From the NCBI RefSeq assembly GCF_053078305.1, contig NZ_CP166879.1: 64,000 nucleotides of DNA. The stretch is one strand, 5' to 3'. Made by a program: the position numbers and the translations under genes. Every line of letters begins with the position of its first letter. Within the stretch, counting starts at the first letter, position 1. Of the stretch, positions 5,155-46,933 are shown in pieces. A model generated the notes under the pieces. The model was not told the DNA's origin. It saw only the letters and a program-made list of their open reading frames with translations, and searched no databases.

Positions 5155-5295
5155 TTACTGCTTACACTGTAAGAACGCCGCAATCTCCGCGCCCGCTATC
5201 CGGAACCGGAACTCGCACAGTGAACTGTGGGTGATCCAGATAATGAGCACTACCGTGATACAAATCACGGTGGTTTTTAACGGTTTTTGCGACAT
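5155..5295 (-). CDS. hok: Hok/Gef-family type I toxin (46 aa), not in ORF track
   Basis: Own translation: MSQKPLKTTVICITVVLIIWITHSSLCEFRFRIAGAEIAAFLQCKQ; TM helix plus LCE-R-R...AAF signature; AAGGAG RBS 9 nt upstream. Confidence 0.6.
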   Translation of the reverse strand: MSQKPLKTTVICITVVLIIWITHSSLCEFRFRIAGAEIAAFLQCKQ

Positions 5296-5493
5296 AAACG
5301 CTTGCTCCTTTTACGGAGAGGCGCTAACCTTCAATTTGCTGAAGATCGAAAGTCAGGCCTCGGGTTAAACATGAATGTTTGTCCGGGGCCTTCGTCTTTC
5401 CGGCCTTCAGGTGTTCCCTCCGGCCATCAGCCAAAGGCACCCGCGCATACTGTACGGTTTTTGTCTCCTTCCGGCAATCCCGGGGCGCGATGT

Positions 5494-8400
5494 TCAACTG
5501 ATGCCGATCCCCGCCGTGGATTTTTTCATGACCACAACCAGTAAATCACTGATGTATGTTGTCGGCGTCCAGTGGTTCACCCCGTTCGACCACACATTAA
5601 ACGTCAGGGTCACATGACCCCGTCCTGCTGGCATATCAATGACGGACGAAAACACCCGGGTGACATCCGTTGCCGGCTGATGAAAAATTACCCTTCCGTT
5701 CATCTGCACCTGTAACTGACACGTGGAATACCATGTTGAAGTGTGATCTTTGCTGGACTGGTGCTCATGTCTCGCCCCCCGGAACAGCACCGGTGGAATG
5801 ATAATCTGCCGGTCGAAGCCCTGGTCATCGTAAACCGTGACGGTTATCGTGCCACTGGCATAACTGTTATTCCGGGGAAAGGCTTTCCCCACCGTCTTCA
5901 CCAGATCGCCTTCAATCTGGTTCGCAGACAGTTTCCCTCTGATGACACAGTTCTCGTTAATGGTGACATTATTGAGCGTGCCGCTATTCGCTGTGACAGC
6001 TCCACTGATGTCCGCATTGCGGGCCGTCAGCCTGCCCTCCGGCGTCAGGGAGAACGTCGGGGGATTGCCGGACGAGGTGATGCTCACTGCAAACAGTCGC
6101 TTCAGGAACACATCGTTCATGAACAGCTGATTCCCCTGCGCCACAAACAGCGGCGTGGTGTTGCCGTTCTCCGGGTTAATCATCGCGATACGGTCCGCCT
6201 GCAGCAGAATATTGCTCAGGGGCTGGCCATCAGCATCCTCAATCCCCGCACCTATACCGGCAACATACGGAATGCCGTTTTTCGTTTTCTGCACCTTCAG
6301 CATATACAGCGCAGCCAGGTCGTTATTTGTGTCTGTCTGCACCCGCTGTATCTGCTGTATGGTGGCACTCTGGTCTTCCAGGGTTTTACTGACCGTCTGC
6401 GTGATTTCATTGCGGGTTTCGGTGATGGTGGTCTTCATCTCCGCCATCTCATCGTCAAGCTGGCTGTTATCAATCAGCTCCCACATCCCCTGTGCCAGAT
6501 GTGTCTTCCCGATTTCTCCTCTGAAAAAGTCCAGATACCCTTCCGCATCATTGCTCGCCCGGCCACTGGCTTCCACAAACGCAGATTTCCCCACCAGGTT
6601 GACGCTGCGCACATAAAACCAGAAATCCTTCCCCGGCTTGATGTGCGGGCCGGAGACGCTCCACTGGCTGCCTGTCCCCAGATAACGGGCAGAGGTTTCC
6701 ACCTGAGATGTGTCTGCGATTTTTGCCTCCGAGAACCAGAACTCAAACTGTACCGTCGGGTCATACACCGCCAGCACCGGTACTGCTGTTATCTGATAAT
6801 ACCCCGGCGTCAGCTCAATGCTGGCCGGTGCTGCAGGCGCATTAATCCGGAACGCGGTGGTGGCAGGTTCGCCCTGCTGGCCGTAGCTGTTTATCGCCCT
6901 GACCGTCAGGGTGTATTCCCCCAGAGGCAGGCCACTGAAACGGTGCTCCGTGTCGGCAGTGATGGCGGTGGTCACCAGGCGGCTGTTTTCACCGTTTCCG
7001 CTGGTCAGGCGCAGACTGAAGCGCACGCCCTTCACCACCCGCGGCGTGTCCCATTTCGCCAGCGCCAGATACTGGCCGTCTGAGGCACTCACCTCCACCG
7101 TGAGGTGCTGCACTGCCGGCGGGATAACGCTGTTCAGTGAACCGGACAGCGGCTCAAAGCGAGCCCCGTTATCCACAATGGCTTCTTTTTCCGGTACGTG
7201 CTGCACTGCCGTGATGGCAAAAGTGCCGTCCGTGTTTTCCCGGATGGAAACACAGCGGAACAGGCGACGACGCAGTGACGGCAGGGAGAGTCCCCACACA
7301 CCGTATGTCTCCACGCCATCCGGCAGGGCGCTGACCTGTATCCGGTCCGGCGCGGGGTGTGCAGTGATGTCCACGCGCACCGGCTTACCGCTGCCGTTAA
7401 TCAGGTTCACCGTCGATGTCCCTGCTTCCGGCAGTGTCACCTCACGGTCCAGCGTCAGTGTGCGGCTGGCGGCATCAATGGACAGGATGCGTCCGCCGGT
7501 CAGGGTCCCGGCATAGTCGTTATCACAGATTTCAATGATGTCACCGGGCGTATGCCGCAGCCCCTGTGACCCGAGCGTGAAATCCACCGTCTGCGTTTCC
7601 AGCAGTTCGGTCTTTATCACCCACAGTCCGGCACGGTGGGCCTGACCGCGGCTGGTACAGCCAAACGCATCCATCTTCAGCAGGTTGCGTCCGTAGCGCA
7701 GGATGGCGTCCGGGTCTTCCACCAGTTCCGTGGAGGTCTGCCAGCCGTTCTGCGGGTCGGTGTAATTCACCTCCACCGCCGTGTGCCGGTCCTTCAGGGC
7801 ACTGAAGCTGTAGCGGAACCCCACGCCGTTATCATCCACCACCACATCGCTGTTGGTGTACGGCCACACCACATCCGACGGACGGTCCTGAACGAACGTC
7901 AGCGTCTGGCCGTTCCATACCGGCATACAGCGCATCGCCGAGCAGAAATCCCCCAGGACATCCCACACCTTACGCTGCTGTGACAGGTACGCATTGAAAG
8001 TCATCCGCGGCTCTGTTCCCCCGAAACCATCCGGGACCGTCTGGTCGCAGTACTGCCCGATGGCATACAGTGCCCACTTGTCCACATCCGCGGCCCCCAG
8101 GCGTTTTCCCATGCCGTAGCGCGGGTGGGTCAGCATGTCCCACAGGCACCAGGCCGGGTTATTGCTGTATGCCGGTTTCAGACTCCCGTCCCAGATACCG
8201 CTGTAGGTGCGTTTTTCCGGGTCATAGTTTGACGGCACCTGAATGATGCGACCACGGATATGGTAGTTCACCGTCAGCTGCTGGCCACCAAACTGCTCCG
8301 CATCCACCTGCAGCCCCACAATGGCCGTGTTCGGGTAGCACTGTTTCACATCGATGATTTCGGTGTATGACGACCACAGCGTTCTGTTCTGCAGCTGGTC

Positions 8401-8970
8401 CGTGGTGCTGTCCGCCGTCTCCCTGACCATCCGGATGTTAAAGGGGCGCTCAGGGAGATTATTCAGAATCACAGACGTCAGGTACTGCGAGGTGGTCTTG
8501 CCGTTAATGGTGATATCCTTCTCCGTCACCCAGTGCCCGTTACGCTCAAGCTGAATCAGCAGGCGGACAGAAGAGGGATTACGGTCACCCTTTGAGGTGG
8601 TCTCCACCAGTGACTGCACCCCGAAGGTGACCCGCAGACGGTCAATGTTCGCTGACGTGATGGTGCGCGTCACCGGCTTTGCCTTCGTCACCTCCACGCC
8701 CAGTGCGGTTTCTGCCCCGGAGGACTCAAAGCCTTCCGGCGGTGTCTGCTCCTGCTCCCCGGCGCGCCAGACGGCGGTCACACCGTGTATCACGGGATTA
8801 CCGTCCGTGTCCGTCAGCGGGGTTTTGTTCACCAGAATACTCTGCAGTCCCTTCACCGGACCTTCCACCGGTCCCTCACCAATGGCATCAATCACGCTCA
8901 TCATCTGCGTGGATTTGAGATTGTCCTTCGCCTCACGCGGTGTGTGCCCCTTGCCGCCCCCTTTACCCAC
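5494..8970 (-). CDS. J: Tail tip / host specificity protein J; likely GTG start at 8970 (track ORF extends to 9021)
   Basis: (V)[21 protein letters not shown]... collinear with lambda J throughout; AGGAGA RBS before GTG. Confidence 0.9.
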
Positions 8971-9211
8971 TCTGCCCCCCTCTCCTGTCTGATGTCTGAA
9001 TCTGTTTATGCCCAAAAACAACAGGCACCCCGGAGGGTGCCTGTGTCATGACGGAATAAAATTTCTGAAATTCTTCACATTTCCGGCAATTGCCTGTAGC
9101 CGCAATAATGACGCTGCGTTACTTTTTTGATGCCTGAAAAATAACTCCATAAAGTTAATCTTCATCGTTCTCTCCCGCAGCTCCACTAACTCTGCGGGAT
9201 TTTTTTTATTT

Positions 9212-9892
9212 TTATCCCCGCCCGATAACCACCACTTTCCCGTCTCCGCCCTCATCACGGGTGCTGATGTCCTGGGATATCCGTCGTGAACCAACCAGCA
9301 TTTCACCGTAAGGCACCGGCATCGGGTTACCCTGGGCAATCATGTTGTCCAGTGACGAAAAATACGTGTTCTGTTTACCGTTATCCGTACTTTTATACTC
9401 CGGCGTCTTTGCCTTCGGGGCCAGCATCTGAGCCACACCACCCAGTATCATGCTGGCACCCAGTGAGAACAGCATCGTGGTGGCAGTCAGCCCTCCGGCA
9501 CTCAGGGCTGCGCCCCATGCCGCCAGTGTTGCACCACCAGTGAAAAATGACCCGACAATCGCTGCAACCCCCAGCACCACCTGAAAAACACCATTTCCCC
9601 CGGCTCCGGCCAGCCGCGGTACAATATGAATCACGGCCCTCCCGCTCAGTGGCTCATGAAGACGGGCATACACCGCCTCCGGCGCGGTATCCTCACCGGC
9701 AATACGTATCTGATACCAGCCTTCGTTCATCTGACCGCGGAATCCCGGCACCTGCAGCGACAGGGCACGGATGGCCTCCGCTGCCGTGTTCACATACAGG
9801 CTGATGCGGCGACCAAATCGTTGTAAATCCCCGTGAAGGCAGATGCGGACCAGTGGCGGTGACGCCAGACAGAATGCGTTCGTCGTTGCCAT
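9212..9892 (-). CDS. I: Tail assembly protein I
   Basis: MATTNAFCLASPPLVRICLHGDLQRFGRR... matches lambda I. Confidence 0.85.
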   Translation of the reverse strand: MATTNAFCLASPPLVRICLHGDLQRFGRRISLYVNTAAEAIRALSLQVPGFRGQMNEGWYQIRIAGEDTAPEAVYARLHEPLSGRAVIHIVPRLAGAGGNGVFQVVLGVAAIVGSFFTGGATLAAWGAALSAGGLTATTMLFSLGASMILGGVAQMLAPKAKTPEYKSTDNGKQNTYFSSLDNMIAQGNPMPVPYGEMLVGSRRISQDISTRDEGGDGKVVVIGRG

Positions 9893-31963: not shown

Positions 31964-31993
31964 GCCCGCATCTCACCATGCGGGCTTTTTTTA
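31964..31993 (+). terminator. Rho-independent terminator on + strand
   Basis: cccgcat-ctcacc-atgcggg hairpin followed by cttttttta. Confidence 0.5.
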
Positions 31994-32000
31994 TCCATAA

Positions 32001-32238
32001 GAAAGCCCCTCCGGAGAGGGGCTGGAGTAGCGCTATGTACCGTTCATTACATGATGCCGGGTGCCTCCCGGTGAGTTCAGCCCGGTGCCACCGAACCCGC
32101 GTCATTCTCGCTAACGATCATCAGAGACCATTCCGTACACCAGCCGCCCCTCCGCACAGGGGGATTCATCATGCAGAAATTTTTTAACAAATTCTCAGTC
32201 GGGAAGACAACCTTCAACTGACTGAATTGTGAGCAACA
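32001..32238. repeat. Structured repeat unit 1 (~238 bp), diverged copy of unit at 32489-32723
   Basis: Shared blocks: gcccctccggagaggggc hairpin, gccgggtgcctcccggtgagttcag, cccctccgcacagggggattca-ATG, ttttaacaaa, ctgaattgtgag. Confidence 0.7.
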
Positions 32239-32488
32239 TAGCATTTAACGGGGAACCTGTTTTCTGCAGTAAAAAGGCCCACCGGAGCGGACGGGCCTGG
32301 AAGGATAGCGGTCATGTGATGCCGGTTTCCCGGTAACTCAGCACCGGTATCTGAGTCAACGTTTTCTCTACTGGGTCATTTCCGATACGCCCTGCCTGCT
32401 GACAGGCTTTCATCACATCTGAAAATATAGCACCCTGACTGATACTGTAGTACCCAAGGTTCCAGAAACTGTGATGTATCCGGCACAG

Positions 32489-32723
32489 AAAAGCCCCTCC
32501 GGAGAGGGGCTGACGCTGCGTATCTGTATCATCATGCGCATGGTGCCGGGTGCCTCCCGGTGAGTTCAGTATCAGCACCTGAACCCGCACAGAAAGGATA
32601 AGGGATGTAACCAAACACCTGTCGCTGATATGCCCCTCCGCTCAGGGGGATTCACCATGCCAGTTTCTTTTAACAAACTCCCCGCAAATCAGACAACTGT
32701 CAACCGTCTGAATTGTGAGACAT
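32489..32723. repeat. Structured repeat unit 2 (~235 bp)
   Basis: Same block order as unit 1; hairpins preserved by compensatory changes (ccgcaca vs ccgctca loop). Confidence 0.7.
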
Positions 32724-33810: not shown

Positions 33811-33887
33811 TGGCGCGTTGTACTGGATTCGAACCAGTGACCGATTGCTTAGAAGGCAATTGCTCTGTCCGACTGAGCTAACAACGC
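33811..33887 (-). tRNA. argO: tRNA-Arg (anticodon UCU), argO-like
   Basis: Cloverleaf folded by hand: acceptor GCGTTGT/ACAACGC, anticodon loop CTTCTAA, T-loop GGTTCGAATCC, CCA end. Confidence 0.75.
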
Positions 33888-33900
33888 ATGATGCTGATAA

Positions 33901-33977
33901 TGGACCGCCATCGGGGACTTGAACCCCGCGCAGCCAGCTTCGAAGGCTGGCGCTCTGTCCCGATGAGCTAATGGCGG
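33901..33977 (-). tRNA. argN: tRNA-Arg (anticodon UCG as read), argN-like
   Basis: Acceptor CCGCCAT/ATGGCGG, anticodon loop CTTCGAA, T-arm CGGGGTTCAAGTCCCCG. Confidence 0.65.
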
Positions 33978-33986
33978 TATGTGATA

Positions 33987-34062
33987 TGGTGGCCCTTGCT
34001 GGATTTGAACCAGCGACCTGGCGATTATGAGTCGCTCGCTCTCACCACTGAGCTAAAGGGCC
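33987..34062 (-). tRNA. ileZ: tRNA with CAU anticodon, ileX-like (tRNA-Ile2 via lysidine, or Met)
   Basis: GGCCCTTTAGCTCAGTGGTGAGAGC...CTCATAA...GGTTCAAATCC...CCA; close to E. coli ileX. Confidence 0.75.
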
Positions 34063-38690: not shown

Positions 38691-38846
38691 TTACTTCTCA
38701 GATTCGTAGTCTACGAAGACAGCAACCTCCGTCTGGCCGGTTCGGATTCGTACCTCGCAGAGGTCTTTCCTCGTTACCAGTGCCGTCACAACAACGGTAA
38801 TACAGATGACGATCAGGGCGATTAACATCGCCTTTTGCTGCTTCAT
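38691..38846 (-). CDS. hok: Hok-family type I toxin (51 aa)
   Basis: MKQQKAMLIALIVICITVVVTALVTRKDLCEVRIRTGQTEVAVFVDYESEK; track ORF extends upstream (mok-like reading frame). Confidence 0.8.
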   Translation of the reverse strand: MKQQKAMLIALIVICITVVVTALVTRKDLCEVRIRTGQTEVAVFVDYESEK

Positions 38847-39136
38847 AGCCTGCTTCTCCTTGCCTTTCGGCACGTAAGAGGCTAACCTACGTTTGTGAAG
38901 CATAGATTGGGCCTCAGATTAATGTTAAGCGTCCTGCAAGACGCGTAATGTTAACTGGGGCTTTTCTCTGTCTGCCTTACGGCGGCATGCCCGAGGCAGA
39001 CAGCCTCAAGCACCCGCAGCAATTCTACTTAACTCTTCTTTCCCCGCAAACCGTTTTTATCCCCAGCGGCAAATCGAATACACCACCAGCGCCACCGCCA
39101 TTGCAATACCAACATTTGAGAAGGCCTCAGGCCAGC

Positions 39137-46475: not shown

Positions 46476-46933
46476 AAAGTGAATTTTGTGATGCGGTGAA
46501 TGCGGCTAAGCGCACGCGGAACAGTTAAAACCGTAAAGTGGTCTTTTACGGGGCGTAACGGGCATACTTCTGTATTCCGGCGTTAATTGTTAACTGGTTA
46601 ACGTCACCTGGAGGCACCAGGCACTGCATCGACAAAGTTCACTTCGGTGATGAAAGGTAAGAGAAAATGTTGAATGTAGCTATTGAAAACCAGAACGGGT
46701 GGAATTATAGTGCACCTGCACCTCATAAAGCGGGTGCCGGGATTGCTACCCCGATGTTCATCATGGCGCATAACCGCGCTCAGGCGTTTTTTTTATGCGT
46801 AATGCACAGCCACATTCAGATTATGGTGGGGCGTGCAGGGCAGCCGCAAGGCTGGCCGGGTTCCATGATGACCGGTTGTAGCAACCCTGTGCGTCTCACC
46901 ACCCATGAGATTGCTACCTCCGGTGGTGAGTTA

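Follow-up and report, generated by a model that had tools for sequence, protein, structure and literature searches.

In the 64,000-nucleotide stretch of DNA analysed here (the window, from contig NZ_CP166879.1), the spacer that separates tail genes I and J holds an element that is already known: a gene for a small regulatory RNA (sRNA) of the EcOnc22 type and PasB family, oriented antisense to the tail genes and lying beside a lambda-like hairpin that precedes J. For the spacer as a whole, we regard a self-contained antisense sRNA gene, an allele of EcOnc22/PasB, together with a separate palindrome belonging to the tail-gene strand as the best explanation, and we put its probability at roughly 85%. 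A published sRNA gene in this way accounts for a structured spacer that is unannotated here, and an attractive small open reading frame (ORF) drops out of consideration.

From the ORF list and the sequence, the spacer runs from the start of J to the stop of I (8971-9211, 241 nt). J lies on the minus strand at 5494-8970, with a GTG start at 8970 and an N-terminus like that of lambda J, and the tail assembly gene I lies on the same strand at 9212-9892, with its stop codon at 9212-9214; the boundaries of gpJ and of the tail assembly protein are identical in the RefSeq annotation of a 98.9% identical locus. The preliminary description had reported a structured spacer of 190 bp at 9022-9212 and had taken I and J to be adjacent in lambda. 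The structure is present, but its extent is corrected to that given above, and the statement about lambda does not strictly hold, in that 60 nt with a hairpin of their own separate the two lambda genes; the window spacer is ∼180 nt longer. Both hairpins in the window spacer fold better than shuffled sequence, with z values from -4.1 to -5.6. Conservation in related prophages, which the preliminary description had named as a check, is extensive: of 5,426 complete E. coli genomes, 800 contain the spacer, as do 147 phage records that include VT1-Sakai, CP-1639, BP-4795 and 1720a-02. The positive E. coli genomes are mostly STEC and carry a median of three copies of the whole spacer, with a maximum of nine. 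A search of positions 8500-9800 against Rfam at E values up to 1 gave no relevant match (one chance match was snoRNA-like), and the Sakai I-J locus likewise gave no relevant match at the gathering threshold; Rfam is without a model for either PasB or EcOnc22. HnrS, a multicopy sRNA that itself reaches nine copies and that the maximum of nine spacers per genome had suggested as a possible identity, was rejected, since HnrS corresponds to EcOnc10-12 and occupies another prophage site.

The sRNA gene occupies 9116-9207 on the plus strand, as delimited by homology to the E2348/69 and Sakai loci and by folding. It matches PasB and EcOnc22, EcOnc23 and EcOnc24 in position, strand and sequence, and the earlier suggestion that the spacer could hold a small regulatory RNA was therefore correct. 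PasB was mapped to the minus strand of NC_011601 at 1466343-1466261, a length of 83 nt (Pearl Mizrahi et al. 2021, PMC8550237, Table S6). In E2348/69 it falls between the homologue of I (1465575-1466255, plus strand) and the homologue of J (from 1466496, plus strand), and the I-J spacer of that genome can be aligned to the window spacer along its length. The northern probe used for PasB, AATCCCGCAGTGATCGCGGAGCT (PMC8550237), is the complement of the E2348/69 counterpart of the second hairpin, the one nearer to I. By blastn the window allele and PasB of E2348/69 are 78.9% identical over 71 nt, a relationship for which megablast returned no match.

EcOnc22 (prophage Sp15), EcOnc23 (Sp14) and EcOnc24 (Sp11) are homologous Hfq-bound RNAs of O157:H7 Sakai, which run at ∼85 nt on northern blots and are destabilised in an hfq mutant (Tree et al. 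2014, PMC4104026). In hybrid reads from RNase E-CLASH, the portion derived from EcOnc22/23/24 is GCCTGAAAAATAACTCCATAACGTTAATCTTCA, at old coordinates 2902717-2902749 (Waters et al., PMC5286369), and 32 of the 33 bases of this read are equal to the plus strand of the window at 9132-9164. The published EcOnc coordinates refer to an older version of the Sakai sequence, and the CLASH read fixes the shift to NC_002695.2 at +135; an estimate of 132-149 nt was obtained from HnrS (EcOnc10) with its terminator and from the Rfam match of AgvB. With this shift, the EcOnc22 Hfq peak corresponds to window positions 9129-9189. An apparent Hfq peak on the palindrome (8994-9054) had come from placing unshifted coordinates on NC_002695.2 and is ruled out by the +135 shift. 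In NC_002695.2 all three EcOnc22/23/24 coordinates lie in I-J spacers, antisense to the tail genes, and the three spacers are identical to one another. We found no statement linking PasB with EcOnc22 in PMC8550237, in the preprint of Zhu, Shabalina and Storz (2026, 10.64898/2026.05.13.724894), or in the wider literature searched, and a full-text literature search for EcOnc22 recovered only a review that lists its function as unknown. That EcOnc22/23/24 (EHEC, 2014) and PasB (EPEC, 2021) are alleles of one locus goes beyond the papers found.

Expression and Hfq dependence have been demonstrated for the homologous copies. The level of pasB changes in an hfq mutant by log2 values of -6.8 and -2.4 (PMC8550237), and the baseMean of pasB in E2348/69 is 482-1082, against 5-15 for the flanking tail genes; PasB is higher in static overnight LB culture. 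RIL-seq chimeras, in which PasB is always the 3' partner, join it to bfpB, bfpI, ftsZ, galE, ler, perB and rplX (PMC8550237). The CLASH hybrids of EcOnc22-24, among whose partners in Sakai is ECs5028, are few, at one or two reads each, and are not significant. In Sakai and E2348/69 lysogens the sRNA is made while the tail genes are silent, binds Hfq and depends on it for stability, and these homologues form Hfq- or RNase E-associated hybrids with mRNAs in trans, including hybrids with ler, perB, bfp and ftsZ mRNAs in EPEC. The copy in the window is probably expressed as well. It is only ∼79% identical to PasB, so that the EPEC targets may not transfer to it. Given the chimeras of PasB with ler, perB, bfp and ftsZ mRNAs, the content of alleles at this locus could add to differences between strains in virulence regulation.

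The anatomy of the gene is that of a short, independently transcribed RNA. A predicted -10 element, AATAAT, lies at 9104-9109 on the plus strand; it was located by alignment to the pasB locus, and the expressed Sakai copies have the same AATAAT. In E2348/69 a strong promoter, TTCACA-16-TATAAT, is present upstream of pasB. A consensus promoter scan of the window called none at the sRNA, the -35 region of which is weak. The terminator in the window spacer is clear; the promoter is predicted through alignment with the TATAAT allele. The start predicted from the -10 is the G at 9116, within the conserved GCTGCGTTA, which would give a primary transcript of ∼91 nt. The 5' ends given by CLASH reads and by coverage in E2348/69 fall at the equivalent of ∼9131-9132, immediately past a U-run, and indicate an RNA of ∼75 nt. 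The mapped 5' ends of the homologues thus lie 15-16 nt downstream of the predicted start, an offset that points either to processing or to a different promoter.

An intrinsic terminator at 9173-9207 on the plus strand ends the gene. Its stem is 8 bp long (9173-9180/9192-9199) and encloses a loop of 11 nt (9181-9191); a U8 tract (9200-9207) follows, and the hairpin folds at -13.2 kcal/mol (z = -4.5). Four nucleotides separate the end of the terminator from the complement of the I stop codon. This is the second hairpin with a plus-strand T-tract that had been seen at the outset, now with exact limits, and the proposal of an antisense terminator also holds, in that it ends the plus-strand sRNA antisense to the tail genes. 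In most alleles the stem CCCGCAG/CTGCGGG is invariant while the loop is variable or deleted, and one allele class has an unrelated hairpin and U-tract at the terminator position; such a pattern would be predicted were selection acting on plus-strand termination. The terminator is the probable Hfq-binding 3' module of the sRNA.

Comparison of 56 distinct sRNA bodies gave a consensus structure consisting of the terminator stem only, with the remainder A/U-rich and unpaired. Two motifs, AACUCC (9143-9148, plus strand) and UUAAUCUUCAU (9155-9165, plus strand), are the sole conserved unpaired stretches among these bodies, and UUAAUCUUCAU is kept in most alleles. Lying just 5' of the terminator, UUAAUCUUCAU is a putative seed, and a seed of PasB has been proposed at the same position (Zhu, Shabalina and Storz 2026 preprint, 10.64898/2026.05.13.724894). 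Candidate target sites were sought by exact complement, as unconstrained duplex prediction against the RIL-seq target fragments gave meaninglessly long pairings. In the ler fragment of the PasB chimeras there are two AAUGAAGA sites to which UCUUCAUU is complementary, and UCUUCAU is kept in the window allele; the complementarity of the ler sites to UCUUCAU(U) is suggestive of seed pairing. The window allele also has an 8-nt match (UUCUCUCC) to the ftsZ ribosome-binding site, which is at chance level and serves as a lead only. In the mechanism that we propose, the promoter, preceded by a conserved dyad block (9046-9082), would drive a plus-strand transcript from ∼9116 to the hairpin and U8, and the unstructured middle of the RNA, with AACUCC and UUAAUCUUCAU, would pair with targets, with the terminator and U-tail bound by Hfq. 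The gene would then be an autonomous insertion of the moron kind, pointing in the direction opposite to the tail operon.

The block at 9046-9082 (plus strand) contains the dyad TCTGA-N6-TCACA at 9064-9079 and is nearly invariant over the allele classes, including those in which the sRNA body and the flank towards J have diverged. A first sample of spacers was retrieved via the block itself, and a second was drawn via the terminator alone. In the terminator-drawn sample, 97 of 107 distinct cassettes have the core TCTGAAATTCTTCACA with no more than two substitutions, ∼133 nt upstream of the anchor. Across cassettes the two half-sites, TCTGA and TCACA, do not change, but the 6-nt spacer between them does. 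Where cassettes occur in tandem, each has its own copy of the block, 24 nt upstream of the respective -10; since the block is repeated with each cassette and the palindrome is not, the block is tied to the plus-strand promoter. These features have the signature of a binding site for a dimeric regulator of the sRNA promoter, and the same upstream dyad in every cassette points to a shared regulator. The dyad agrees with the CRP site TGTGA-N6-TCACA at nine of ten core bases. CRP is thereby a candidate regulator, but the centre of the dyad, at about -44.5 from the predicted start, does not fit the -41.5 of class II CRP promoters.

The locus is far more variable than the 2026 census indicates: seeds differ, one allele class has a replaced terminator hairpin, and arrays reach four cassettes. 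We recognised at least six or seven allele classes at the I-J site. Among 86 distinct spacers, 70 have one cassette, six have two and eight have three or four, with an array spacing of ∼225 nt; 14 of the 86 thus carry two to four cassettes in tandem. The four cassettes of L028 have differing middles (...GUUAAUCUUCAUCG, ...GGUGACUAUUCGUU, ...GGUUAGUCAACAUCG and ...GUUAAUCUUCGUAUC), and each has its own block, -10 and terminator. The preprint describes PasB variants that are a few nucleotides apart and mostly single-copy, with duplicates on 58 of 1,107 chromosomes (10.64898/2026.05.13.724894). With the whole spacer as query we obtained a median of three copies per genome, against the mostly single-copy occurrence in the preprint, and the low diversity and copy number reported there probably stem from the use of only the E2348/69 allele as BLAST query. 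It is possible, at odds that we place slightly below even, that lambda-like prophages of STEC and EPEC have in the I-J junction a dedicated and expandable site for sRNA cassettes that have the dyad block and terminator in common and differ in their pairing middles. If so, a lysogen with several prophages would express a co-regulated family of sRNAs with distinct seeds, and EcOnc22-24 and PasB would be members of a family much more diverse than the published census. Tandem arrays of one to four cassettes with different putative seeds were not described in the papers that we found on this sRNA. We offer the allelic and array diversity, and the common promoter dyad, as modest leads.

The sRNA could act mainly in cis, pairing with the late tail mRNA upon induction so as to bring about cleavage or altered expression of J, with any action in trans being secondary. 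The gene lies wholly within the spacer, antisense to the operon, and the RNA has perfect complementarity to the I-J intercistronic mRNA; it is moreover abundant in lysogens, and its position is conserved over many phages. Nonetheless, the sRNA has no overlap with the coding sequence of I or of J or with the J ribosome-binding site, Hfq dependence and numerous chimeras in trans are documented, and tandem cassettes with different bodies are a better fit to diversification of targets in trans. We therefore consider a mainly cis-acting role unlikely, albeit with some residual weight; cis action is compatible with the reading of the gene as a self-contained antisense sRNA and the two are not exclusive.

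The palindrome near J is a different element. It had been described as a perfect repeat, acaggcaccc-cgga-gggtgcctgt, at 9022-9046; the perfect 10+4+10 arrangement is there, at a corrected position of 9021-9044. On the minus strand it forms part of a terminator-like hairpin (9011-9044), with a 10-bp stem (9021-9030/9035-9044) and a 4-nt loop followed by UGUUUUUGGG (9020-9011), and the start of J lies ∼45 nt downstream on the tail-gene strand. The terminator scan called it on the minus strand, where it is trailed by the U-tract TGTTTTTGGG. Its fold energy is -23.1 kcal/mol for the minus strand (z = -5.6 relative to shuffled sequence), compared with -20.1 kcal/mol for the plus strand. A compensatory change of a stem pair from C-G to T-A is present in 17 of 83 alleles. 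With the innermost pair excluded, one-sided changes keep a G.U pair only in the minus-strand RNA in 28 cases and only in the plus-strand RNA in two; the innermost pair adds 12 plus-only cells, all from alleles with a differing loop, and these may be an effect of the loop alignment. The pattern of substitutions fits RNA pairing on the tail-gene strand. The preliminary description had treated the palindrome and the second hairpin as parts of one element, which cannot be maintained: the palindrome belongs to the tail-gene strand and occurs once per spacer, beside J, and is absent from the distal cassettes of arrays, whereas the sRNA cassette is repeatable. Our preferred reading is that of an RNA hairpin of the late operon that resembles an intrinsic terminator and is older than the sRNA insertion. 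Such a hairpin might halt sense transcription that lacks Q antitermination before it reaches J, or it might stabilise the upstream mRNA against 3' exonucleases. Lambda offers a counterpart: at the corresponding place ahead of J, its 60-nt I-J spacer holds AAACCGCC-UGCG-GGCGGUUU and then a U-rich tail. Folding shows this lambda hairpin, although the terminator scan of the lambda I-J spacer did not call it; we know of no function assigned to it.

The palindrome could instead end a second sRNA, transcribed from the tail-gene strand from ∼9098 to 9014 with the conserved block as its seed, so that the spacer would encode a divergent pair. The minus strand at 9082-9014 does resemble the 3' half of an sRNA in having an A/U-rich stretch, a hairpin rich in GC and a U-tail, and the -10 element reads CATTAT when reversed onto that strand. 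No usable -35 accompanies it, however; no minus-strand Hfq peak is listed in Sakai, the EPEC RIL-seq tables contain no I-J intergenic RNA of that strand, and it is the block, not the palindrome, that recurs with each cassette. We regard a divergent second sRNA as quite improbable, and retain the reading of one plus-strand sRNA gene beside a hairpin of the late operon.

It had also been suggested that the spacer could encode a small protein, and a 39-aa ORF (MKINFMELFF...) is indeed present on the minus strand at 9046-9165. On this proposal the ORF would have its own ribosome-binding site and use the palindrome as terminator; its ATG is preceded by GGGAGAG, its stop lies 1 nt from the terminator hairpin, and a hypothetical protein is annotated in the area in one phage record. 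We reject it as a gene, since its start codon, frame and length vary among 83 distinct spacer sequences taken from IMG/VR. The homologous start codon is ATG in about two thirds of these alleles and ACG or ACA in about a third, and the peptides at the ORF position range from 7 to 54 aa, with changes of frame and unrelated C-terminal halves. An alignment of six divergent spacers shows the same: the ATG is ACG in 1720a-02, stops come early in PhiR12_2 and BP-4795, and the indels across the ORF are not multiples of three. Conservation is confined to the first ∼25 nucleotides of the ORF, and its start (ATGAAGATTAA) is conserved because it is the complement of the sRNA motif UUAAUCUUCAU. RefSeq has no annotation at the ORF, and we attach very little credence to a small protein gene. 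Equally implausible is a toxin-antitoxin pair of type I in which the ORF would encode a toxic peptide and the plus-strand RNA would be its antisense antitoxin, for although the sRNA is antisense to the 5' end and start codon of the ORF, and sok-like RNAs occur elsewhere in the window, the ORF is neither conserved (in start, frame or length) nor hydrophobic and has no evident promoter, the spacer matches no Rfam antitoxin family, and the homologues of the sRNA are Hfq-dependent with many partners in trans.

The closest known relatives of the sRNA gene proposed here are the Sakai copies. EcOnc22-24 share with it the I-J spacer, the strand relative to the tail genes, the promoter region and the terminator, and between the window sRNA and the identical Sakai spacers there are three substitutions and one extra T. 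The substitution at 9153, within the conserved middle, is A for C, that at 9118 is G for A, and that at 9185, within the loop of the terminator, is A for G; the window has U8 instead of U7. Expression has been demonstrated for the Sakai copies, whereas the window copy is known from its sequence. PasB is more distant. It has the same locus, orientation, terminator stem, AACUCC and AUCUUCAU motifs, upstream block and architecture of an Hfq-dependent sRNA, but the window allele differs from it in a 6-nt deletion, a different 5' third, and a -10 of AATAAT rather than TATAAT, without the TTCACA -35.

The palindrome finds its parallel in the lambda I-J hairpin, which also has a GC-rich stem, a tetraloop and a U-rich tail and lies on the tail-gene strand 20-45 nt before J. 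The lambda hairpin is unrelated in sequence, has a shorter stem and adjoins no sRNA cassette; the likeness seen is one of position. More broadly, we note the parallels between the sRNA gene and AgvB, AsxR and HnrS (EcOnc10-12). These have unrelated sequences and validated targets, and they are inserted elsewhere, either downstream of the late promoter or amid other late genes. In common with the gene described here, they are short Hfq-associated sRNAs of EHEC with their own promoter and terminator at fixed positions in lambdoid prophages, they are multicopy in EHEC, and they combine conserved 3' parts with variable target-pairing parts.

Comparison of the spacers between tail genes I and J in related phages represented by IMG/VR contigs shows that some hold from two to four sRNA cassettes, arranged in tandem with a spacing of ~225 nt. 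Contig L028 has a four-cassette array, seven others (L024, L025, L029, L039, L057, L081 and L108) have three to four cassettes, and six (L037, L058, L086, L101, L104 and L113) have two; the I-J spacer of the window has only one. Every cassette of an array comes with a separate TCTGA-N6-TCACA block, a -10 and a terminator, but the putative seed differs from one cassette to the next. In the window the block is the dyad TCTGA-AATTCT-TCACA at 9064-9079, upstream of the sRNA promoter. Across cassettes the half-sites are invariant and the spacer between them is variable. The dyad resembles a CRP site, matching at 9/10 core bases; its centre, however, is at approximately -44.5 from the predicted start.

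Contig L040 carries a truncated cassette, in which the seed-proximal part and the terminator (TTAACGTTAATCTTTGTCTGTCCCCGCAACTCTGCGGGATTTTTTT) adjoin the I end and unrelated sequence takes the place of the promoter block. This is probably a decayed copy.

In the window allele, UUCUCUCC at 9168-9175, just 5' of the sRNA terminator, is exactly complementary to GGAGAGAA in the ribosome-binding region of ftsZ. Because complementarity over 8 nt is at about chance level, we regard this predicted pairing only as a lead. We note that ftsZ is among the RIL-seq partners of PasB, the sRNA at the same locus in EPEC.

At the three EcOnc22-24 loci (2.17-2.90 Mb), the Sakai sRNA coordinates published by Tree et al. 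2014 and by Waters et al. 2017 show an offset of +135 nt against the current chromosome record, NC_002695.2; calibrations at 1.94 and 2.23 Mb permit an offset of 132-149 nt. Applying the published coordinates directly to NC_002695.2 misplaces every EcOnc peak in that range.

Several other RNA families have matches in the window. The Rfam family of the sok antitoxin RNA (RF01794) is matched twice, each time on the minus strand, at 38841-39015 and 5284-5442; the latter match is the weaker (63.5 bits, just over the family threshold of 59) and lies directly downstream of the J stop codon (5494). The two matches suggest that hok/sok-type loci are present in the prophage. The prophage sRNA STnc100 (RF02076) is present in two neighbouring copies on the minus strand, at 31993-32203 and 32483-32689, near three tRNA genes (33814-34062). 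On the plus strand, a match to isrK (46718-46794) is followed at once by one to C4 antisense RNA (46819-46906), and the pair may be part of a second mobile element or of a different prophage module within the window; this order is the arrangement of P1/P7-type immunity regions.
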